From an uncultured Nitrososphaeraceae archaeon (lineage in GTDB: Archaea > Thermoproteota > Nitrososphaeria > Nitrososphaerales > Nitrososphaeraceae): a stretch of DNA of 64,000 nt. The notes under the pieces were generated by a model that had not been told where the DNA came from, made no database searches, and worked only from the letters and a program-made list of their open reading frames with translations. Each line of letters begins with the position of its first letter. Position 1 is the first letter of the stretch. The position numbers were made by a program, and so were the translations under genes. Of this stretch, positions 15,776-40,659 are shown in pieces. Location of the stretch: contig CAWGVG010000062.1 in assembly GCA_963825865.1 (NCBI GenBank), positions 164,940 through 228,939 of the forward strand, read 5' to 3'.

Positions 15776-16056
15776 GACAGCAGGACCTTCTACAGGTTGA
15801 GATATAGCATACACCTTATACAGCAAAAAAGTGATTGTTAGATAGAGATCCTAATCCAAATATCATTTATATTGCATAATGCAATTTATAGTATGTTTAA
15901 TCCACTATTAACAGGTTTTTTAAAGAAAATTCTATCTATCTATAGATATATAAAAATAAATTTTATAAAATAGCAGTTAGTTAGTTAGTCAACCGATGCT
16001 AACAGTTGGCCAACTATTAACCAACCAACCAACCAACCAATCTATCTATATATTAA

Positions 16057-16453
16057 TCAAAAATAAGTTTTGATGTTCGGCATCTCTCGCTCTACAAATA
16101 TTCGGACTTCGCCCCTGTTAAAAGTTGACCTATTATCGTTACTGCTCTCATGTCCTTTCCCACGTTCCCTAAGATAGACTTTCATTAGTTTTTCTTCAAA
16201 AATTTTCTTGTATTGAACAGCTTCATGAAAATTTTCGAATACTGCTAACCCTTTGAAATTATTTGTTTCGTTGTATAAAGCGACCGGCATTCCGGGTGAC
16301 AGATATAGTCACCCAGAAATTGTGTTTGCTTCTTCTCTTAATCACGAAGAAGCCTTTCTTATTATTATTATTTTGCTCTTTTTGTTCTGGTTGTTGTTCT
16401 TTTGGTTGTTTTGATTGTTGCTTTTCTTCTTCTTCTTGTTTTATAGATTGCAA
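16057..16453 (-). CDS. Hypothetical protein(s) (16259-16453 and 16057-16290, possibly one frameshifted gene)
   Basis: Overlapping ORFs. Confidence 0.35.
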
Positions 16454-20824: not shown

Positions 20825-23441
20825 ATGACCTACAGAGAAGAATCAGACACTTACGATGTTGATATTGATGACTCAACGCTAACTCCATCTGGATTTATCA
20901 GATTTTCTTTTTCACAAAATGGCAAATCTGAAGACGGTAAAAGCATGATGACTTTATACAATCTTGACTTTCGTAGAATCATCTATTGTGATATTTACAA
21001 GCATGACTATGCCAGGACTATACAGGCATTCAAAGATACATTAACGACTGCGATGAAAGAAGATGAATTATTAGATGAAGAGACAGTTGCAAGCCTGATT
21101 GTATGTTTTGATAATGCGTGTAAGATATTAAAGGAAGATAAGAATTCTGGCTTTTTTCATCGTGCTGTAAATGGAAATGGAAATGGAAAAGGAAATGATG
21201 ATGCAGTAGCACAGCAGCAGTATTACCAAGAAAATGAAATACCTACTAAAGAGGTATCCATATCTGAAGCATTACGAATGCATTCAGGTTATGTCAAAGT
21301 TAAGGACGGTATGATTTCAGGTTCTAGAAAATTGGAGAAGATGCCAACTAATACGTTTTTTATATGTGATTCATGTCAAGTTATAAACGCAATAAGCATT
21401 TACTCACGTCCAAAATTTATGTATGAGATAAATAGGTTAGAACGTTCTAATAAGACTAGAACATGTTTCAATTGTTCTGTAAAAACTGTACCCTCTGAAT
21501 ATGACCACGATGTAAGAAATGCCGTAAAAATAGAATTACAGGATGTAAAGACTTTTAGCGATTTAGAAAGACTACCAGCAATACTATTTGATGACTTGTA
21601 CTACTAACGTTGGTGTTGGTGAACAGGTTACAGTTACAGGTCGAATTTATAAAATAAGGGTGAATAACAGTATGATTCCATTCTTATTTGTAGACACAAT
21701 TGAATATGAAAACAGAGAAGAACTATCTGAAGAACCTACTGATAAAGACATTTTAGAAATTAAATCTATAATAAGCAAGGCTGAAGAGGAAAAGAAAAAT
21801 CCAATTGATATACTGGTCGAAATGTTTGCTCCTAGTATTATCGGCTATCCTTTTGTAAAGAAAGGGTTACTTATCTGTGCTGCAAATGCAGGTAAGGACT
21901 CTGTAAATCAAAGGCTTAGAATTAATGCATTGTTAATTGGAGAGACAGGACTTGACAAGTCACCTCTACTCAGGGCAGCAACCAAATTAGCAGCAAAAAA
22001 GTAGATATTGTTCAGCATTAAATTCTTCGATTAGAAGCCTTATCGGTATTGTAGATAAGGAAGATGATAACCTTATGTTGCGTTTAGGTCCAGTATCTTC
22101 CTCTAGTGGTGCTATCTGTGCAATTGACGAAATAGGTCGAATGGAACACGAAGACCAGGGACACTTACTGAGTGCATTACAAGAGGGTAAAATACCATTT
22201 GCCAAACATGGATTTAACACGGTCCTGGATGGTTCTGCTACATTTATCATGTCTGCAAATCCAACTCACGACGGCACCTGGAGACATAAGGATAAGATAG
22301 AACGCAATGAAATACCAATGTTAGGCCCACTACTGGACAGAAATGATTTAATATTCATATTCAGGACCAACCGCTACAAACCAGATGTAATAAAATACGC
22401 ATTTGACAAGGCTGATATCTCAGAAGCCATTTATGCAGAGGAAGAAAGATACTATGATTTTTTAAGAAAATACATTCTATACTGTAAAAGGTTTAAACCA
22501 GTATTATCTCACGAAGCGAAAAACATACTTATCCAATTCTATGCCATGTGTAGCAACAAAAACAGGTTCACCTAGGTTATTTGATACAGTTAGAAATATA
22601 GCATATGCTATCGCCAGGTTGAAACAAAAAGATATTATCGAAGCAGAAGACGCTAGTGATGCCATACAATTCTATAATGTTATACTACAACAGTTAGAGG
22701 AGATTGTTATAGTAGCAAAAGACCCTAGAGATTTAGCAATTGAAGAAGTCATCAATATCTTGAATGGTTCAAAATACCAGTTTGAATTTATCGAATTAAT
22801 GAAGTCAATATGCGATAAAAATGAGTTTGTTTCTAGATATTTTGGTAATGATTTCCATGTAGACAGTAATAAAAAACTAAGAATGCTTCGAGATAGATTT
22901 GTGAAAGGAGTAGATAATAGAATATTAATAGTTAGTTTATCGCCTTTAGTGACTAGCCTGGGAGCCATCTTATAGCTCCTCCTCTTCCTCTTCCAATAGT
23001 GATGATAAGGTTAAGGATGATAGTAAGACTGATAGGCTAACTGACCAAACTGACCAAACTGACCAAACTGACCTGCCCATTTTTGAAAATATCGATATTT
23101 CTTCTCCTCCTTCTCCTTCTTCTTATAATGATAGAGTTTCTGAAAATGATGTTATAGATAGTAATAATAGTTCTAGTAAAATCGATAGTAATATCCTTGA
23201 TAATGATGATAAAAATATCGATATTTCTGAAAAAGGCCAGGTCAGTCAGGTCAGTCAGGTCATTCAGGTCAGTCAGACAGGCAATTCAGAAAATACGATT
23301 AGTAAAAAGTTCAAGTGCTTTTACTGTGAAGAATGTTTTAGTAGTAATGATGAACGTAGATACCATAGACAGCAGTACCATCCAGACAAAAAACTAGACT
23401 ATCCTACTCCAGAGGACTTTGAGAATCGTTTGGAGAGGTAA
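20825..23441 (+). CDS. mcm: Element-encoded MCM helicase, frameshifted into at least five pieces, with a C-terminal C2H2 Zn finger
   Basis: Zn finger CDSC...CFNC, OB fold 'VGEQVTVTG', 'FAPSIIG', Walker A GETGLDKS, Walker B ICAIDE, 'MSANP', Arg finger LLDRND, sensor-2 SPRL; C-terminal CFYCEECF...H...HP. Confidence 0.85.
23039..23273. repeat. Inverted iteron-like arrays in the MCM 3' region; candidate replication origin
   Basis: 4x AACTGACC(A/T) at 23039-23074 facing 4x CAGGTCA(G/T)T at 23238-23273, with inner imperfect inverted arms containing AATATCGATATT. Confidence 0.75.
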
Positions 23442-24870: not shown

Positions 24871-25255
24871 TTTTGTAATTAACTGTACTAAGGTTATTTG
24901 ATATACTAAAACTTTTATCTCTAGCAGTTTATTCTATATAATAATAGGTAATATAATATAAAATGGTAAGCAAAAACTAGGAGCAGAAATTGATGACAAA
25001 ATAGAAGAAAAATATTTTGAAGAAGAAGAAAGAGAAGAAGATTCTAGGACCTACTACTAAAAAAGAAGAATCAGCGGCATTACTAACTTATAGGTTATTA
25101 GAAGCACATCTATTAACTTATATTTTATTTTTCAGAGCCAGAAGCAATAATGGTAGTATTTTAGTAGTTAATGTAATACTACTTTCTAAAGTTATATTCT
25201 TTTCACTCTATTCTACAGTAGTAAGAGATTACTATAATAGACTATTGATAGTTAA

Positions 25256-25384
25256 ATGAGTAACTACACCTGATTTAATATTCTTATTAATTATATAAAA
25301 TAAGTCAGCATAAAATCACATTAGATAAATCAGCATTAACTTACTCAAGTCAAATATACAGATAATAACAAATGACTATATATA
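25256..25384 (+). promoter_or_regulatory. Conserved ~125-bp upstream element of the secreted-protein cassette (also ~26246-26374, ~34983-35114, and minus strand ~45415-45545)
   Basis: Shared blocks CTGATTT...ATAAGTCAGCA...ATAAATCAGCA(G/T)TAACTT...GTCAAATATACAGAT. Confidence 0.75.
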
Positions 25385-26033
25385 ATGAACAACACAATTA
25401 CAACGAAACGAAATCTATCCTTAGTTGCTATCTTTATGGCAGCAACATTAGTAGTAGGAACATTTGCAGTAACAACAACCACAATAGCAACAACACAAAC
25501 GGCATTTGCTTTTTCAAAGAATAAGAAAGGAGATGAAAATAGTAAGAATGGCAACACAATTACCGCACTGAAATGCGAAAATAAAGGTTCTGCAAGTGGA
25601 TTTGATACAGCATTAGACCAAGAATGTGAAAACCTGATATGTACTCATCCAGGTAATAATGCATCATGCGTAAGTGAAAATGAAGGAGCAACTACAACAA
25701 CAAGCCCAGTAACAACACCTACAGGAACCTTAATAGTTGAAAAAGTCGTAGTTTGTAGAATTGGTACTACATGTCCTTCACCTTCAGACTTTACCATAAA
25801 AGTAACGGGCAATAACCCTACGCCATCTACATTCCATGTAACAATTCCAGAAACGCCCGGACCCCACGCCAGTACAGTTGTTACATTAGGTGTAGGTGCT
25901 TACAAAGTAAGTGAAGAGCCACTTCAGGGCTTCGAGCCTAGTTTCTCAGGTGATTGCAACGCAAATGGTGAAGGGTACTATAGCTCCAGGCGACCACCAG
26001 ACATGTACTATTACAAATAGCAAGCCGCTGTGA
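25385..26033 (+). CDS. Secreted Cys-motif protein A, with a beta-sandwich (prealbumin/SpaA-like) C-terminus
   Basis: Signal peptide; GSASGFDTALDQECENLICTHPG motif; 'GTLIVEKVV...FSGDC...TCTITN' (frameshift near the end). Confidence 0.75.
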
Positions 26034-26374
26034 GGATAATCCACAAGTTGATTAGACAGTTACTTGCTGCTTACTGATACACATAACACCAAAAAAAGAA
26101 GGTAACTTATACCTTCAAACACTTTTTTATTTTTAACTATATGTTATTACTATGCTATTATCAGTTAATTAGCGAAGTGAAATAATATTATCACTAATCT
26201 ATTGCATAGTAGTAACAAATTATCATAATGTACTAGTGATAGTTATATGAGTAACCATACCTGATTTGTCATTTTGAATAGTTATACAGAATTAGTCAAT
26301 ATTATATCATATTAGATAAATCAGCAGTAACTTCGCCAAATCAAATATACAGATGACATTGATAAAGTAGATAT

Positions 26375-27001
26375 ATGAACAACGCAACGAACCTAGCGAT
26401 AGTCGCTATCTTAATGGCAGCGACATTGATAGTAGGAGCGACATTTTCAGCGACAACAGCGCAATTAACAGCATTTGCTTATCAGAAGAAGAAAGTAGGA
26501 GGAACACAAGACGGAGGAAGCAAAAATGGCAACACTGTTACCATTGAGGAATGCAAAAATAGGGGTTCTGCAAGTGGATTTGATACAGCATTAGACCAAG
26601 AATGTGAAAACCTGATATGTACTCATCCTGGTGAAAATGCAACCTGTGTACAAGAAGGAGTTGTAACATCAACACCAACACCAACACCCGAGCCAATTAC
26701 AACAACCTTAAGAGTCATAAAAAAAGTCGTTTGTAGCCTACAGACCCTAATTGCTCTCTCCCAAACTTCTGTGAAATAGTATTTAGCTAACCAAGGCCAT
26801 CTGCAAAGTTTCACATGTCAGTCTGCTGTTGGAAATGGTGTCCTTTTTACACTGCAGCCAGGGGATACCTTCGCTGTAGAAGAGGAACAGAATATACCAG
26901 GGACAATTTTTGATGTTACACGAAGTAGTGATTGTGATGGTACGATAGCTGCAGGCCAACACCTAACCTGGACTATTACAAACACAGAACCCGGCACATA
27001 G
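26375..27001 (+). CDS. Secreted Cys-motif protein B, with a beta-sandwich C-terminus (frameshifted)
   Basis: Same N-terminal motif; 'TTLRVIKKVVC...DCDGTIAAGQHLTWTITN'. Confidence 0.7.
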
Positions 27002-27052: not shown

Positions 27053-27445
27053 ATGGCAACCATATTATCATTATCTCAGAATAGTATCCCCATGGCAATA
27101 ATAAACGAAAAATCATCAGAAATAGAACAAGAGCAACAAGGAGAAGAACAACAAACAGAAGAAGAGATTGATACAAGCCCTTCAGCAGTCTTTGACAGTT
27201 CATTAAAGGAATTGAAGCAAGTGATAAACCGAATAGAGAAAAACAATGAAGAAACACTTGGCGATTTATTACGGTTCTACTGGCTCGAACTTCCAAGTAA
27301 ATTGATGATTATCGACATGAAATTAAGCATGATTCAACAGCAATTACAAGCACAAGGCGTCTTTCCTGAAGACACAACCATATCCGATTTAATGAATGAA
27401 ATAAGACAAAGAAGAAGAAGAAGAAAAAACATAGATAGTGGATGA
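27053..27445 (+). CDS. Hypothetical protein (acidic N-terminus, coiled coil, Arg-rich tail) whose stop codon lies in the leftmost, degenerate array repeat
   Basis: 130-aa ORF ending RRRRRKNIDSG*. Confidence 0.6.
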   Translation: MATILSLSQNSIPMAIINEKSSEIEQEQQGEEQQTEEEIDTSPSAVFDSSLKELKQVINRIEKNNEETLGDLLRFYWLELPSKLMIIDMKLSMIQQQLQAQGVFPEDTTISDLMNEIRQRRRRRKNIDSG

Positions 27446-27855
27446 ATCTGAACTGTTTTTCAAAGGTGCGCACTAAGTGCGCAGTTCTAGGTTGACACTC
27501 TCTACTACCATGGTGGAATTATAACCATCATATGCTTATCAAGGATGCGGACTAAGTCCGCAGGTTCAAACGCTACCATGGTGAAATTATAACAAAATTT
27601 GAGGATTTCCTCAAGTTTTTAGCATTTTGTTCAAGTGCTACTATATGATGTTGGAATCTGAACTCATGAACCAGTTCTTCTTATGGGATATTCCCATAAA
27701 ATGCCCGTTGTTGTGTTTAAACGCTACCATAGTGAAATCTGAACTACCTACACTCTTAATATCATCTGGAGTCCAGGTGATATTATTTCAAACTCTATCA
27801 TAGTGGTTGAATCTGAACCTTCGTCTAATTTGAGCACTTAGTGCTCAAGATTTAT
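27428..27855. CRISPR. Degenerate orphan CRISPR-like mini-array: 6 repeats and 6 palindrome-containing spacers
   Basis: Repeats at ~27428-27453 (partial), 27491-27525, 27564-27593 (GTTCAAACGCTACCATGGTGAAATTATAAC), 27629-27663, 27715-27744 (GTTTAAACGCTACCATAGTGAAATCTGAAC) and 27786-27818; enclosed spacers are 37, 38, 35, 51 and 41 bp; no cas genes in the window. Confidence 0.7.
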
Positions 27856-27972
27856 CAGAAGAAGAAAATAAAAAATATATAATTGCACCTATATTCTTTA
27901 GAAATCAAAACTAATGTTACCAACTATTAGATACAACTGTTTTTTATAATTATAAAACAAATGTTCTGCTTA

Positions 27973-28548
27973 TTATACTTCTTTTGGATTATTAGCACGG
28001 ATAACAGTAACATCTATTCTCTCAGAATATCCATATGTATCACTCAGCTCTCTTACACGATTTACAGTATCTTTTTTTTCAGGTACGGCAATCCTCTTAT
28101 TACCGTCAGAATCTGAATTTTCAATCTGTTTGCGTTTAACTTCCTTTTCGATTAGTGGAATATTTGGATAAATTCTTTTTTCTTTTTTACTTACTTTGTC
28201 TATACGGAAAAGTTTTTCGCGTTCATAACGCTTGATAATCGAATCAAAATTTCCACCAAAATCGGTTCTTGCACCTTCAGTTTTGTCGCTTAAAGATTCA
28301 TTGGACCTTTCTTTTAGTCGAATATATCGGATATATTTTTTGTCAAGTGATTTACAATACCAAGCTGCCTCTATTGGGACTATAAATGATTGGTCAATGT
28401 GATTTAGTTGATTTATGTCCAAGCCATTATAATATTGATTAATTTCCACCAAAATTGGTCTGGTTTTAGACCATATATAATTTGTAATGGTTATAAAGGT
28501 TAAAAATATGTCCAAAAATCTTAAAATGATAGCAGTAAACGAGGCCAC
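27973..28548 (-). CDS. Hypothetical protein, possibly winged-helix DNA-binding (true start likely downstream of 28548)
   Basis: 'FDSIIKRYEREKLFRIDKVSKKEKRIYP' helix-wing pattern; divergent from the RHH gene. Confidence 0.5.
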   Translation of the reverse strand: MASFTAIILRFLDIFLTFITITNYIWSKTRPILVEINQYYNGLDINQLNHIDQSFIVPIEAAWYCKSLDKKYIRYIRLKERSNESLSDKTEGARTDFGGNFDSIIKRYEREKLFRIDKVSKKEKRIYPNIPLIEKEVKRKQIENSDSDGNKRIAVPEKKDTVNRVRELSDTYGYSERIDVTVIRANNPKEV

Positions 28549-31865: not shown

Positions 31866-32510
31866 CTATGGGTGAAACCCTCCCATCATAGGACCCATCA
31901 TTCCCATTCCGCTTGAGGGCCCATCATCATTCCGCCACCATGCATCATCGTATGCGTAGCATGATTCCAGGTCCTGTAGGCAATTGCTTCAGATGAAAGA
32001 ACTTTTCCCCATTTCCAACATCTACTATTACCCTATGGATGTTATTACCAGAGAATATAATCCCATCTTGCTACAAAATCCATTTGCCCTCCAACATGAC
32101 CTGATACCGCATGAGCATTGCTACCCACTGTTTTCTCTGCAGTCATAGTAGAATTAACTAAACTGGTATGTACTTGCGATGATATTGCATTAGATATTGT
32201 AGGGAATATTCGGAACAGAACCGTAACATTTGAACACCATAGTCATCATTCCAGTAAAATTCTAATTTGCTATATCATCACCGGATTGTCATCATGATTC
32301 AGGATTCGTCATAATTGCCGGTAGTCATCATTACCAGGATCGTCATAAATACAGTCCATACCCATCATCGGTCCCATCATACCAGGATTCATCATGATTA
32401 CAGGTTGTCATACTTGAGCACTCACTTTTTGAATCGGCATAGTTGATGATGACAGAAATGCTGTGACAACTATTGCAGAGGCTATACATCATTGTTGCTA
32501 TAGCGGCAGA
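31866..32510 (-). pseudogene. Met/Gly-rich exported PepSY-like protein, frameshifted
   Basis: Fragments 'NAISSQVHTSLVNSTMTAEKTVGSNAHAVSG' and 'VIVDVGNG', plus MMNPG repeats. Confidence 0.55.
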
Positions 32511-33788
32511 ATTCATATCAGATGATAATACGATTAAATATATGTGGATTGATAAAAGTAATTCTGAAGTCTTAATATACATATTTCTAGAAGTTATATA
32601 TAGAGAGAATAAGAACCAATTCTTTCCCTTCTTTTAATATTAGTGGCAAGTCGACATCAATCTAAATTAATATATTATGACGAAGACAATAAAAATGAAG
32701 TTTCTTTCAAATCTAGTTGCATGATTTATCAACACTTTTACATTTCTTCTCTCCAATATGATGCAGAATTATAATTTATATAATTATAATAATAACAAGA
32801 AATTACCGTTATTGAAGAAAGGCAAGCTTCAACCTTTAGGAAATATAACAAGAATCAGATTTGTAAATGATAAAGACCTTCGATAAGGTAGTAGTAGCAT
32901 TAGTAGCATCAACAACAATATTGTTGTTAGTCCAAGCACAGTTTACTGACAATTTTTATAATTTTATAATTTTATAATTTTACATATTCTTTATTATATG
33001 ATGAAAATACAAGTATACGATAACAATAATAATAATAAGAAATGCCAAAACTAACTCAAATTCAAAGAGAGGAAATAAACATTAGTTATAGACTGTATCA
33101 TTAGACGTTTAACAACAAAAGAGATACAGTATGGCTAGGTCTGACTAAACTTCTTCTTGTGATGATGGTGGTGTGTTTTATTGTATATCATATCTCAAAG
33201 TAACAGAATCAATAGAAGGATGACTGAAGAAGAGCAGATATTTTATGAACAGGAAAAGCTATGGCAGATTTATTCTCGGTTGGGTTTGTAAGGTAGAAAC
33301 AGTTGATGACTGGATTATATATTTTGAATTTTTCAAACGAATGAACGTATTTCACTCTAGACTTGTTAAACTGCAGAGGGAAAAGTTGCTATTTCCTCAT
33401 AATAATAATAAACGGACATTACCTTAAAAATAAGCGTCAATCTACAATGGACATTTGATATTATAGGTTGGACGGTAATAATAATAGTTGCCTCTTTGTC
33501 ATTAACTTAATCTATGCAAAATAATATCTATAATACTTGAAAACAATATTCAGATTTTTGTTTCTTAATATATACATATGTATATCGATATAAATAATAC
33601 AGACGTATTTCAAAAAACAAAAAGGAACTGATGTATCTAACACATATGCTGAAATTTCTTTAATGATTATTTTTGATTGCATTACTTTTTTCTAACTTTA
33701 TCTATTGTACTTTCACTGCTAACAACCTGCTTATAGTCAGGAAGGAACATCGCAAACCACAAATAATAATAATCAGGGGTATGGCAAA

Positions 33789-37452: not shown

Positions 37453-37670
37453 TTATTAACTAAAGAGAGATTAAAATCAAATGACAGTTTGATAACTCGT
37501 TAGTTAGTTAGTCAACCACTAATTTTTTCAGTATACATTGTATGCATTGGGTCAATAATATCCCTACACCTGATATAGATATTTACTACAGCATAAAATA
37601 GAATCAATAATCAGATTTTACTTTCAAATGCCTTATTTTTATCTATCTTCTAATTGAATGTTATAAGAAA

Positions 37671-38396
37671 TTGGTGAAGGTAAAGGTTACAATATTAGCA
37701 ATAGCTGTTATGCTTGTTTTATCTTCTTTAACAATGGCAGGGCCAGGACTGGTCTTTGCTAAGAGTGGTGGAGGCGGCGGCAAGCAGCGGCGGTGGTGGC
37801 GGCGGCAGTAGCGGTGGTGGCAGTAGCGGTGGAGGCGGTGATGGCGGCAGGAGCAAAGGTGGTGGCGGCGGCAGTAGCGGTGGTGGCAGTAGCGGTGGAG
37901 GCGGTGATGGCGACAGCAGCAAAGGTGGTGGCGGCGGCAGTAGCGGTGGTGGCAGTAGCGGTGGAGGCGGTGATGGCGGAGCAGCAAAGGTGGTGGCGGC
38001 GGCAGTAGCGGTGGAGGCGGTGATGGCGGAGGCGGAGGCACGAAAGGAATAGGACAACCAGGAAAAAACCTACATTATGGTATTAGCCCAATAGAAAAGA
38101 CTACAAAGAAGTTCACAAGTGACCAGCAGAGTAGGAGGGCAGAAGGGCTGAATGGACAGTTTCCACACTTCCCGCACTTTGGAGGTGGAGGACAATTTCA
38201 TGACAACTTCCATGATAACCATAGTACCAGCACAAGAACCGTAATAGTCCATGACCACAACAATAACGAACAAACGATAGTGGTAAACAGCAACTTACAA
38301 GGGACCTGCTTTGTATCTTCACAACAAGTGGTGGACATACCAAACTTAGTTACTCAACTGCTGAACCAATGCACTTCGGTAACTATAACACCTTAA
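37671..38396 (+). CDS. Gly/Ser-rich exported protein (frameshifted)
   Basis: Signal peptide 'MVKVKVTILAIAVMLVLSSLTMAGPGLVFA' followed by GGGGGSS repeats. Confidence 0.6.
37792..38035 (+). repeat. 66-bp tandem repeat (~3.5 copies) encoding a Gly-rich linker
   Basis: Units start at 37792, 37858, 37924 and 37989. Confidence 0.9.
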
Positions 38397-39499: not shown

Positions 39500-40659
39500 C
39501 TATAGCCCTAGATTTTCTTTCAATCTGGACATTTCCTTGCTTAATTCCAGAATCTTTTCTTGCTGACTTCTATATTCGCTTACTTCTTCTTTTAGCTGAT
39601 TTAATTCGTCCTTCTTTATCTTTAGTATTTCATTTTCACGTTTCAAACGATTCTCTTCGTTTATCGTAAGGTCATCTATAGCACCAATATAGCCAATCAT
39701 CTTATCATTTCCTTCCAAAACTTGTTCTTCAGTTAGTTTAAGATAGGAATCTTCCAATCCTGAACTATGGCCCATACACCTATTGATAAGCAACAAGTCC
39801 ATACCTGCTAATCTTGCAGTAGTCTCAAAATATTTTCTGAAGCCATGACATTGCATAACTTCGGTTCTTTGCGTTTTATCTGGCGACCGTGGTCTGATGC
39901 CGGACTTGTCAAGCAATGAGTTAATGAGCCAGCTCGTAGAACCTGCGGCTAAAGGTTTGGGTTTTGCTATATTTAGGCTGTTGAATTCTTTCCGGATAAC
40001 CAGAGATTTATCATGTATTTTCTCGCCTAACCTTGCTCTGTAATCAAAGTACTGGTCTAAGGTTTTGGTGCATTCGGGATACAAAAAGTATAGTATGCTT
40101 CTTTTTCATTCTTGTAGACAGAGATTTTATATAAAGAATACCTGTCTATCTTTTGTAAATCTCCTACTTTAAGGTCAGGAATAGCACCTCTCCTTAAACC
40201 ACCAGAACACATAAGCAGAATTATACATTTACTTCTTAAATCAGCAAAGTCTAATAACTGTCGAATCTGTTCTTTTGAGTAGGGCTTATCGTCAACTGCT
40301 AACCTTTTCTTACCCTTGAATTTGGATAGTCTTCTCCAATTTAAGACGACGTTATTCATTGCGTAAAAGTGGGCTATTGCTGCTACATACAGATTAACAG
40401 AATTAGACGATAATTGCCTGTCTATCTTCAAATAAATGATATAATCTCTTATCCTGTCTTCCAGCTTATGCAATGTTAGCAGGCTGTCATAGTGATAATT
40501 ATAATAATCATCCAGGTTGCTGCAGTATTCCATGAACAAAGCTAAACCATATCTATAGCTCTTCTTTGTGGCTTCAGAATCGATAGAATTGATAAAGTTC
40601 TTGTATGCTTCTGATTCAGACTCTATTCTATTTAAAGGAGAGATACTACTAGAAGACAT
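39500..40659 (-). CDS. Tyrosine recombinase/integrase, one frameshift near 40085
   Basis: 'LMCSGGLRRGAI' (R), 'HGFRKYF' (HxxR), 'MGH...EDSYLK' (H, Y). Confidence 0.9.

Follow-up and report, generated by a model that had tools for sequence, protein, structure and literature searches.

What is a short series of CRISPR-like repeats doing in an archaeal genome when no cas gene lies beside it and each of its linkers contains a hairpin? The question is raised by a locus of an uncultured soil ammonia-oxidising archaeon of the family Nitrososphaeraceae, which lies in the 64,000-nt stretch of DNA that we analysed as a whole (the window). A sequence-only reading had taken it for an element-borne mini-array of acquired spacers that might direct borrowed host Cas proteins to palindromic sites of rival elements, act as structured decoy RNA, or serve as a DNA sponge or centromere. 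Our analysis leads to another answer, which we hold tentatively and at somewhat below even likelihood, namely that the locus is a CRISPR-derived, cas-less and degenerate mini-array, a type I-B-like relic in a decayed mobile-element-like island, in which the hairpins have been kept.

The six related direct repeats described earlier are indeed there: boxes R0 to R5 all have the same orientation, measure 30-35 nt with one partial copy, and span 27424-27818 (Table 1). DNA contigs from two other public soil runs are identical to the window over 27269-27534 and 27598-28037, so the array is no assembly artefact. The runs with small shares (X3-X20) are labelled as soil or rhizosphere metagenomes, and the sole RNA contig, of 204 nt and from one RNA run, covers 27970-28173, outside the array.

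Table 1. Boxes, linkers and right flank of the array (positions in the window)
Feature	Position	Strand	Description
R0	27424-27453	minus	Partial and most degenerate box; last (distal) repeat when read on the minus strand
S1 linker	27454-27490		Perfect inverted repeat 27467-27483; paralogue of S2 and, in the hairpin, of S6
R1 box	27491-27525	minus	35 nt, with insertions
S2 linker	27526-27563		Perfect inverted repeat 27546-27562
R2 box	27564-27593	minus	30 nt; minus strand matches the type I-B repeat of same-family genome G003 at 18/30 positions, ungapped
S3 linker	27594-27628		Core inverted repeat 27599-27614, extendable to 27594-27619
R3 box	27629-27663	minus	35 nt, with insertions
S4 linker	27664-27714		51 nt; perfect inverted repeat 27681-27699; likeness to other linkers not significant
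R4 box	27715-27744	minus	30 nt, best-kept copy; minus strand matches the I-B repeat at 19/30 positions, ungapped
S5 linker	27745-27785		14-pair inverted repeat 27757-27785 with one T.G, abutting R5; no significant kin linker
R5 box	27786-27818	minus	33 nt; of all copies the nearest to the I-B repeat; first (leader-side) repeat in a minus-strand reading
S6	27819-27855		Not enclosed by repeats; perfect inverted repeat 27830-27848
AT-rich flank	27856-27972	minus	21% G+C against 37% in the array; TATA-like runs (by eye); 16-nt AT palindrome 27942-27957

As a CRISPR array the locus is irregular in several respects. Whereas type I-B arrays have near-identical repeats of a single length, and the six genuine arrays of relatives have uniform ones, the boxes are only 49-83% identical in pairwise comparison, with indels (mean column identity 70%). 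The periods from box to box are 72, 68, 70, 81 and 74 nt, irregular and unphased, and the linkers, at 35-51 nt, depart from the narrow length range expected of CRISPR spacers, which is mostly 33-38 nt in the arrays of relatives. The array is not called by TRF. On the minus strand, four of the five boxes folded are nearly unstructured (0 to -1.8 kcal/mol), R5 being the exception (-6.7 kcal/mol). A degenerate coding tandem repeat, which would have removed the ground from the whole idea of an array, can be dismissed, since stop codons interrupt the box in several reading frames, most of the periods are not divisible by three, and the sole ORF that runs through part of the array has 58 aa.

Despite this irregularity, the boxes do resemble type I-B repeats when read on the minus strand, as had been proposed. 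Our reference was the repeat of a same-family genome whose arrays adjoin a cas6-cas7-cas5-cas3-cas4-cas1b operon. R5 matches it at 25 of 34 positions when gaps are allowed, a score attained by none of 20,000 random 30-mers from the genome, and for R2 and R4 the corresponding p is 3e-4. With p at or below 3e-4 for three boxes, kinship to a cas-linked repeat family is thus indicated, but it is modest (60-74% identity) and the opposite, plus-strand orientation also scores above chance (p = 0.006-0.047), because the ends of I-B repeats are partly self-complementary. The boxes are as close to the I-B repeat as they are to each other, as would be expected of copies that decay independently of one another. 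We consider that the locus is probably of CRISPR ancestry.

A reading on the minus strand would fit the distribution of T runs, the upstream flank of 21% G+C and the degenerate state of the distal repeat. The minus strand has no run of five or more T inside the array and a T6 at its distal end, whereas on the plus strand two T5 runs fall inside it, one of which begins at 27616 in S3. R0 has its 5' 19 nt (minus strand) conserved and ends in the T6 run; in keeping its 5' part it is like the terminal repeats of relatives' arrays. It also overlaps the stop codon of a plus-strand ORF (27053-27445). In the same reading, S6 sits between the AT-rich flank and the first repeat. The flank has no sequence likeness to the leaders of relatives' I-B arrays and is leader-like by position only.

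For the hairpins the earlier description holds. An inverted repeat is found in each of the six linkers, at the coordinates given before: five have a perfect one with arms of at least 7 nt, and the sixth, S5, forms a 14-pair stem with one T.G. The best perfect stems of S1 to S6 comprise 8, 8, 7, 8, 5 and 9 pairs. The rate at which a perfect stem of at least 7 pairs arises, per spacer, is 0.6-1.2% among 20,000 shuffles and 1.0-2.0% among 20,000 genome segments drawn at random and matched in length to the linkers. At most three of six linkers had such a stem in the shuffles (in one of 20,000 trials), at most two of six in the genome segments, and four or more of six were reached by none of the 40,000 control trials. 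Ordinary spacers were said to be seldom palindromic, and this agrees with the genuine arrays of the family, where 6 of 277 spacers (six arrays from same-family genomes) have such a stem. The palindromes are therefore far more frequent than chance would produce.

A different picture emerges when the linkers are compared with one another. They had been called unique, and the differing offsets of the palindromes within them had been taken as a sign of acquired DNA; neither point can be upheld. S1 and S2 are alike at 25 of 31 positions (z 10.3; equalled in 0 of 3000 shuffles), and significant likeness also links S3 with S6 (z 4.8) and S1 with S6 (z 4.1), while the remaining 12 of the 15 linker pairs show none. 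S3 is paralogous to S6 at the base of the stem and in the flanks, and S6 is chimeric in its likeness, its base resembling S3 and its apex S1. The hairpins of S1 and S2 stop at an equal distance from the box that follows. Furthermore, R1 and R2 share derived letters, R1 being 95% identical to R2 over its plus-strand 3' 21 nt, and this, together with the closeness of S1 and S2, points to tandem duplication of whole units. Since at least four of the six linkers are homologous, they arose by duplication of units and not by independent acquisition.

This kinship changes the weight of the hairpin statistics, because four of the linkers are kin and the number of independent origins behind the six palindromes falls from six to about three, which at a chance of about 0.01 each is still improbable. 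It also allows changes within the stems to be followed. Two compensatory double changes among the kin linkers keep the stems: S1 and S2 have four differences in the 13-nt flank and, in the 17-nt hairpin, only one compensatory pair, and S1 and S6 differ by one compensatory pair and one loop change. Five perfect stems would not survive neutral decay in an array whose boxes are 17-51% diverged, by simple arithmetic on these figures. The shuffles, the compensatory changes and the rarity of such stems among relatives' spacers thus bear out the view that something beyond chance keeps the dyads, and we incline to the view that the hairpins are under selection.

If the favoured reading of a degenerate I-B-like relic is correct, the array would have ceased to store acquired guides and its repeats would have drifted apart, and its growth would have come, at least partly, from duplication and recombination of whole repeat-plus-linker units. 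The hairpin in every linker would be what is retained while the repeats decay. Transcription, now or in the recent past, would start in the AT-rich flank on the right, pass through five boxes and end at the T6 run (27424-27429), yielding an RNA of about 430 nt or, should a Cas6 cleave it, pieces of crRNA size. In each unit a stable stem-loop would then stand 0-19 nt behind the end of the repeat (for three of the five enclosed ones the distance is 0-7 nt), which would make the units unfit as ordinary guides and leave the RNA to act through its structure. That the locus acts at the RNA level is possible, though we would not put it at even likelihood. Putative roles are a decoy for repeat-binding proteins, which we find rather doubtful, or a Cas-independent structured RNA. 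The furthest-reaching version is a truly exapted CRISPR array, in which the spacers have become selected stem-loops copied along with the repeats, and in which the product would be either a multi-unit, guide-dead crRNA mimic with anti-CRISPR action on hosts of type I-B or a structured RNA that is built on a CRISPR scaffold and works without Cas; this, too, appears rather unlikely to us.

The surroundings agree with the earlier proposal that the array is element-borne. It sits in a mobile-element-like island with a fragmented MCM helicase gene about 4.5 kb away, a fragmented integrase gene, transposases and an HNH gene. Ten neighbouring ORFs have no Pfam or PHROGs family, and no gene of known family follows the array on either reading strand. 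The product of one neighbour, of 191 aa, has homologues in 4 of 150 family genomes, there without array or synteny; Atlas look-ups for this protein scored 0.76 or lower. For a 130-aa neighbour, neither 200 genomes nor viral contigs yielded a convincing homologue. The neighbourhood also contains a weak PADLOC match to MkoB (E 2.6e-4).

Partners and relatives of the array were sought widely. Six Pfam families of Cas proteins (Cas1, Cas2, Cas5, Cas6, Cas7/DevR and RAMP) gave no match (0/6) in the assembly, so that a host Cas to borrow is not in evidence; as the assembly is 81.76% complete, the absence of cas genes and of a cognate array leaves room for doubt. Neither the rest of the genome nor 237 family genomes hold an array with the same repeat, and no CRISPR repeat with three or fewer mismatches to the 24-nt core was found in 200 family genomes. 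A single 3-mismatch match in one of them (G066) is a lone site without an array. Another search gave three single matches, against approximately 21 for a reversed control pattern; one of the three (L065) lies in a coding sequence, and no array stands beside it or beside its counterpart (L066). A match in a metagenome belongs to an unrelated bacterial contig (L020), and 12 matches in genome contigs are single sites in bacteria, about as many as expected by chance, with a further search giving none. Arrays of the same type, which the sequence-only reading had advised looking for in related elements, were not found in the collections searched.

The spacers fared no better as guides. No protospacers were found in the genome itself, in 60 relatives or in phage and plasmid records, and three exact scans of viral contigs, whose sensitivity is low since they use exact patterns, returned none either; one 19-nt match in a viral contig was rejected, as that contig has 57% G+C and the flanks differ. 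Several other identities for the locus were examined and discarded. It is not a dispersed repeat of the REP or MITE type, since the box occurs only here and the three genome matches of the class-A hairpin are all at this locus, and four look-alikes with 6-8 mismatches on other contigs (C14, C60, C34 and C55) are parts of a coding gene that is present in multiple copies. No known RNA family reached its gathering score in the window, with 27300-28000 giving only matches of E 1 or higher, and no tRNA was found. A C/D box or k-turn at the end of the boxes was dismissed by eye, the order and spacing of the motifs being wrong.

Of the other explanations, the one that best withstands these data needs no function at all. 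An old cas-less mini-array may simply be decaying in a dead element, with one or a few ancestral hairpins spread by unit duplication and the stems kept perfect by a mutational process, such as arm-to-arm template switching or gene conversion within quasi-palindromes. Much of what we observed is in line with this: the repeats are degenerate and have indels, the MCM and integrase genes of the neighbourhood are in pieces, four of the six linkers are paralogues and the chimeric S6 suggests recombination within the array, the hairpins have no strand preference, and relatives, cas genes and targets all went unfound. With 6-nt flanks, the plus strand gives the more stable hairpin in four cases, the minus strand in one, and in one they are equal; for the region as a whole the plus strand folds slightly better (-129.1 versus -124.2 kcal/mol). 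What this explanation accommodates less easily is that S4 and S5 are unlike the other linkers and yet have stems that are equally good or better, so that two further origins would be needed, or else a divergence that saturates while the stems are perfectly maintained. Moreover, the 5-Mb genome has 24 clusters with at least four palindromes in 450 nt, and among the 7 of the 23 others that were inspected none is comparable, all being AT runs or one repeated operator-like site. We regard neutral decay as improbable, though credible.

A second possibility is that the locus acts as DNA, as an origin, a partition site, a recombination site, or a signal for single-strand initiation or of hairpin type, and that its CRISPR likeness is coincidental, or inherited without being relevant. 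Direct and inverted repeats next to a stretch of 21% G+C with an AT palindrome have the classical look of a plasmid or viral origin, the broken MCM gene is near, and the boxes hold small dyads of their own. The perfect stems, with centres of 1-3 nt and no strand bias, are palindromes that suit a symmetry at the DNA level as well as they suit RNA stems. However, the six dyads are not alike in sequence or in arm spacing and could thus not be read by one dimeric protein, which also speaks against the suggestion, made in the sequence-only reading, of a sponge or centromere for such a protein. The compensatory changes indicate pairing over half-site recognition, the spacing of 68-81 nt is unphased, the array itself is not AT-rich, no replication or partition gene is adjacent, and a more origin-like, repeat-bearing stretch of 24-26% G+C lies at 32500-33700. 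Tandem centromere and iteron arrays, such as sopC of plasmid F, have the dyad as their conserved part, the same in every unit. Our locus shares with them the tandem units, each with a short inverted repeat, and the apparent residence on a mobile element, but here the dyads differ from unit to unit and the conserved part is the non-palindromic box; the same dyad in phased units next to a rep or par gene is not what we see. In type III toxin-antitoxin loci of the ToxI kind, the gene of an endoribonuclease toxin is immediately preceded by an array of tandem repeats that are nearly identical and about 34-45 nt long, and an array of this sort was rejected on account of the period of 68-81 nt, the degenerate units and the lack of a following gene of known family. 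A role as a DNA-level cis element is, in our estimate, unlikely.

Within the favoured reading, one special case deserves separate mention, in which the array would work as an RNA anti-CRISPR, its repeat mimics and hairpins soaking up Cas6 or Cascade subunits of I-B hosts. Repeat mimics carried by viruses and plasmids inhibit CRISPR-Cas according to the available text of PMC10651486, and like those RNA anti-CRISPRs and solitary repeat units our locus is repeat-like, lies in what resembles a mobile element, has neither cas genes nor targets that we could find, and might bind Cas proteins while giving them no guide. The element-like island offers five to six I-B-like boxes that would serve this purpose, and a hairpin 0-7 nt from the handle end in three of the five enclosed units would block guide function. 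In the same text, however, the Racrs are single units that closely mimic the repeat of their host, 83% of solitary repeats agree in subtype with the host, and CRISPR-Cas is present in about 90% of the hosts, a pattern that does not agree with a host in which no Cas was found. The locus has six degenerate units, each with a hairpin linker, and instead of mimicking a repeat of its own host it reaches at best 74% (gapped) identity to the sole I-B repeats compared, those of the family. This special case is, to our mind, quite unlikely.

The working mini-array of the sequence-only reading, guiding borrowed Cas to operators, origins or parS-like sites of rival elements, is very improbable: the CRISPR-like geometry, the I-B-like repeat, the presence of Cas1 in 24 of 201 family genomes, so that some potential hosts do have Cas, and the precedent that integrated elements of these archaea carry stand-alone arrays whose spacers are directed at other elements (in the part of PMC6563490 available) speak for it, but they are outweighed by repeats 49-83% alike with indels where real arrays are uniform, by four paralogous linkers, by the fruitless searches for Cas families, matching repeats and protospacers, and by hairpins that stand, in three of the five enclosed units, where the seed of a guide should be free. 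As far as the available text of PMC6563490 and PMC6858448 goes, the stand-alone arrays of integrated thaumarchaeal elements and the mini-arrays of Sulfolobales viruses are small and have no adjacent cas genes, as here, and our locus resembles the former in lying in a mobile-element-like island of a Nitrososphaeria genome and in having a repeat related to the type I-B repeat of the group. Those arrays, however, share their exact repeats with a host array, and their spacers are diverse and in some cases match other elements; in the present locus the repeats have diverged, the linkers are largely copies of one another and all form hairpins, and neither a cognate array nor a target was found.

Two further groups of loci come close to the type I-B-like relic that we favour. 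CreTA-type mini-CRISPRs are located within cas loci or close to them, or else employ the Cas proteins of the host, and part of their spacer matches a promoter. Our locus has in common with the degenerate mini-CRISPRs that produce crRNA-like RNAs (CreA and crlRNA; available portions of PMC10989794 and bioRxiv 10.1101/2024.10.29.618823) the degenerate repeats, the "spacers" that were not acquired and the derivation from CRISPR; it differs from them in having no cas gene, no match that we could find, and hairpins in place of free guides. The False-CRISPRs of Zhang and Ye (2017) are recognised, in the accessible text of PMC5294841, by the lack of cas genes, a reduced diversity of spacers and at least five mismatches to real repeats, and our locus has all of these traits. 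Most False-CRISPRs described there are either dispersed elements of the STAR type or tandem repeats that TRF detects, whereas the present array is not called by TRF, is unique in its genome and is significantly like a real I-B repeat.

So far, then, the locus is one of a kind, and it looks like the reworked relic of an immune array and not like a working memory of invaders. The weight of this observation is limited to that of a single locus in one uncultured soil archaeon, for which neither relatives nor a partner protein were found. For annotation it is instructive all the same, as such a locus is easily labelled an orphan CRISPR although four of the six spacers here are related by copying. 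Should the hairpins indeed be under selection, the locus would offer a rare view of the fate of a CRISPR array on a mobile element after the loss of its Cas partners, with the repeats decaying while the "spacers" gain a structural role of their own, and it would then bear on how RNA anti-CRISPRs and crRNA-like regulators originate from arrays.

The six CRISPR-like direct repeats (boxes R0 to R5) and the linkers that follow them (S1 to S6, the last unenclosed) belong to a region held in a 527-nt gap between the stops of two ORFs. All six boxes share one orientation, recur with periods of 72, 68, 70, 81 and 74 nt, and are 49-83% identical to one another in pairwise comparison, with insertions in R1, R3 and R5. 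A profile built from the boxes returned R0-R5 as its top six matches in the 4.98-Mb genome (13.2-18.0 bits; next match 10.3 bits), a result that is circular as a test of relatedness and informative on the absence of more copies. Neither this profile nor an approximate search tolerating as many as 8 mismatches found a further box in the genome, nor does it hold a second copy of the array region. Two other public soil runs, one of them perhaps the source sample, have contigs that match 27269-27534 and 27598-28037 without a difference, and the array sequence is therefore no assembly artefact.

Features of the array and of the island around it (positions in the window)
Feature	Position	Strand	Remark
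MCM helicase gene	20825-22975		at least 3 or 4 reading-frame pieces
ORF left of gap	27053-27445	+	its stop bounds the gap
R0	27424-27453		clear relatedness over 19 nt only
S1	27454-27490		inverted repeat 27467-27483
R1	27491-27525		box
S2	27526-27563		inverted repeat 27546-27562
R2	27564-27593		box
S3	27594-27628		inverted repeat 27599-27614
R3	27629-27663		box
S4	27664-27714		inverted repeat 27681-27699
R4	27715-27744		box
S5	27745-27785		inverted repeat 27757-27785
R5	27786-27818		box
S6	27819-27855		inverted repeat 27830-27848
ORF right of gap	27973-28548	-	its stop bounds the gap
Tyrosine-recombinase gene	39500-40659		two overlapping pieces

The host is an ammonia-oxidising archaeon, since its genome encodes archaeal AmoA. 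The sequence-only reading took the array to be borne by an element, and the surrounding island agrees with this: besides MCM and tyrosine-recombinase genes whose breaks stem either from decay of an integrated element or from indel errors of the assembly, it carries one HNH gene and two DDE transposases. For the ten ORFs closest to the array, Pfam and PHROGs give no family and PADLOC a single weak match. Two adjacent ORFs upstream (25385-26020 and 26375-26779), likewise without a Pfam or PHROGs family, belong, by tblastx, to a gene family that counts about 40 loci in the genome; summed over soil metagenome contigs, the depth of the stretch 25000-26800 that holds them is very high. Short AT-rich repeats, both direct and inverted, mark the most AT-rich part of the island (32500-33700, 24-26% G+C), where ORFs are nearly absent; this part is a candidate for the element's origin or a regulatory region, and as an origin it is more plausible than the array. 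At 37600-38200 lies a G-rich island whose G+C is 49-57%, against 35% in the genome, and whose GC skew reaches 0.4; within it, at about 37776-38018, a 66-nt unit is repeated in tandem 3.7 times and probably codes for a glycine-rich stretch.

With respect to the linkers, the claim that each of them contains an inverted repeat has proved real and statistically strong. The longest perfect stems in S1-S6 measure 8, 8, 7, 8, 5 and 9, and the S5 stem extends to 14 pairs including one T.G. Perfect stems of at least 7 occur in 0.6-1.2% of linker shuffles and in 1.0-2.0% of length-matched random genome segments; in 20,000 trials each, shuffles never gave more than three linkers of six with a stem (once), and genome segments never more than two. 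Each linker folds better than its own shuffles on both strands (p 0 to 0.08). As an empirical control, stems of that kind were found in 6 of the 277 spacers of six genuine arrays beside cas1 in genomes of the same family, Nitrososphaeraceae. Such palindromes occur genome-wide at 0.54 per kb, and 24 clusters of at least four within 450 nt exist in the genome; the seven others inspected consist of AT runs or of a single operator-like site in several copies. An intergenic dyad cluster at 15871-16074 has runs of a 4-nt unit on one side, a complement-like unit on the other and a central palindrome. Outside the window, at least six copies of one 10-12-nt palindrome centred on GTTAAC lie within 150 nt upstream of a gene (contig C26 of the same genome, 6410-6560); these have a classical operator or iteron look, in contrast to the studied array, whose dyads all differ.

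The spacers are not unique, contrary to what had been supposed. S1 and S2 are identical at 25 of 31 positions (z 10.3), S3 and S6 have the stem base and both flanks in common (z 4.8), and the S1 and S6 hairpins agree at 14 of 17 positions (z 4.1), while likeness is not significant in the remaining 12 of 15 pairs, including every pair with S4 or S5. Furthermore, R1 and R2, which follow S1 and S2, have derived letters in common (20/21 at the plus-strand 3' end), and both hairpins stop at the same distance before the next box; together with the S1/S2 likeness, this makes S1+R1 and S2+R2 a tandem duplication. S6 resembles a chimera, with a base as in S3 and an apex as in S1, suggesting that sequence was exchanged between parts of the array. 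Given the kinship of four linkers, the six hairpins represent about three independent origins, which is still improbable.

The kin also show how the hairpins change. S1 and S2 differ at four positions in a 13-nt flank and at only two in the 17-nt hairpin, which together form one compensatory pair; S1 and S6 differ by one compensatory pair and one loop change, with no uncompensated stem change. By simple arithmetic, two random stem changes would form a still-pairing pair about once in 39 cases, and this was seen twice.

The proposed resemblance of the minus-strand repeat to type I-B repeats was upheld. Around twelve of the relatives' cas1 genes nine arrays were found, three of them with a 30-nt repeat, and one of these adjoins cas6, a 666-aa gene without family match, I-B cas7, cas5b, cas3, cas4 and cas1b. 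On the minus strand its repeat matches R4 at 19/30 and R2 at 18/30 positions ungapped, and R5 at 25/34 with gaps; of 20,000 random genome 30-mers none reached R5 (R2 and R4, p = 3e-4), whereas the plus-strand reading gave p = 0.006-0.047. Shuffle controls gave z 2.7-3.9 in both orientations. The boxes are about as near to the I-B repeat as to each other, as would be expected of separately decayed copies of an I-B-like repeat. Several features fit a minus-strand reading. On that strand the array is free of T5 or longer runs until a T6 on its far side (27424-27429); on the plus strand two T5 runs lie inside it. No box is as degenerate as the far one, R0, in which the 5' part survives as it does in the terminal repeats of relatives' arrays. 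The near flank (27856-27972) has 21% G+C against 37% in the array. Counting against this polarity, the flank has nothing in common with the leaders of relatives' arrays, hairpin energies (better on the plus strand in four cases, on the minus strand in one and equal in one) do not favour the minus strand, and the whole region folds slightly better on plus. Our judgement, of moderate confidence, is that the array is likely read on the minus strand. In one relative (genome G102, locus L033) a 13-nt palindrome abuts the first repeat of a genuine I-B array; it is absent from two other leaders examined.

The repeats have drifted by 17-51%, and units multiply through duplication; the hairpins beside them are still perfect, with compensatory change wherever kin are comparable, which bears out the earlier view that the dyads are maintained. 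Since under box-like drift a perfect dyad of 14-16 nt would by our arithmetic survive in only about 1-2% of cases, the hairpins owe their persistence either to selection or to a mutational process that regenerates them. The dyads are unlike in sequence and arm spacing, an argument against a single dimeric DNA-binding protein and in favour of base pairing itself as what counts, be it in RNA or in single-stranded or cruciform DNA.

That the linkers are acquired guides against palindromes, as the sequence-only reading held, is a weak model and most improbable for all the I-B likeness of the boxes, given four kin linkers, no Cas found and no targets. None of six families (Cas1, Cas2, Cas5, Cas6, Cas7/DevR, RAMP) was detected in the genome, whose assembly is 81.76% complete so that absence is not proven; Cas1 occurs in 24 of 201 family genomes, the source genome not among them. 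The search for protospacers that had been suggested gave only 12-18-nt chance matches in the genome itself, matches limited to A/G-rich flanks in 60 relatives, nothing by BLAST in phage and plasmid records, and a single 19-nt chance match in viral contigs. The 24-nt box core with up to 3 mismatches recurs as a lone site in 1 of 200 other family genomes, and a looser two-anchor pattern as single sites in 3 of 237 genomes, fewer than a reversed control. Exact-pattern scans of viral, metagenome and genome contigs yielded no related array, the one metagenome match being an unrelated bacterial contig.

Elsewhere the genome has one small CRISPR-like array and no long one. This second cas-less mini-array (contig C22, 8612-8753, outside the window; duplicated at 99.7% at the start of contig C20, 27-180) comprises two good 30-nt repeats, a degenerate one and two spacers without palindromes or matches elsewhere in the genome; its repeat is about 77% like the family I-B repeat by hand count, nearer than R0-R5.

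On the minus strand, the hairpins of S5, S2 and S1 start 0-7 nt past the repeat end, the position of a guide seed, and those of S3 and S4 at 9 and 15 nt, or at 14 and 15 nt if only the perfect cores are counted. With three of five enclosed units so placed, the units would make poor guides, and our reading is therefore of a CRISPR-derived array whose present action, if it has any, depends on structure. Serious rivals to this reading, though each is unlikely, are a neutral fossil and, slightly less probable, a DNA element.

Cas-less arrays described from integrated elements of these archaea carry the very repeats of host arrays, with spacers directed against other elements (PMC6563490); the studied locus has neither. 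RNA anti-CRISPRs are solitary close mimics in hosts with a matching system (PMC10651486), whereas our locus mimics loosely, in a host for which no system was found. Judged by published working criteria (PMC5294841) it would count as a 'false-CRISPR', yet the likeness of its repeat to a real I-B repeat is significant. We found no description of arrays with hairpins in all spacers in the open-access literature on palindromic or hairpin spacers and mini-arrays, although one may be in print. As a single unconserved locus, the array carries limited weight. If active, it would most likely work as a transcript, perhaps a mimic taking up the repeat-binding Cas proteins of I-B hosts.
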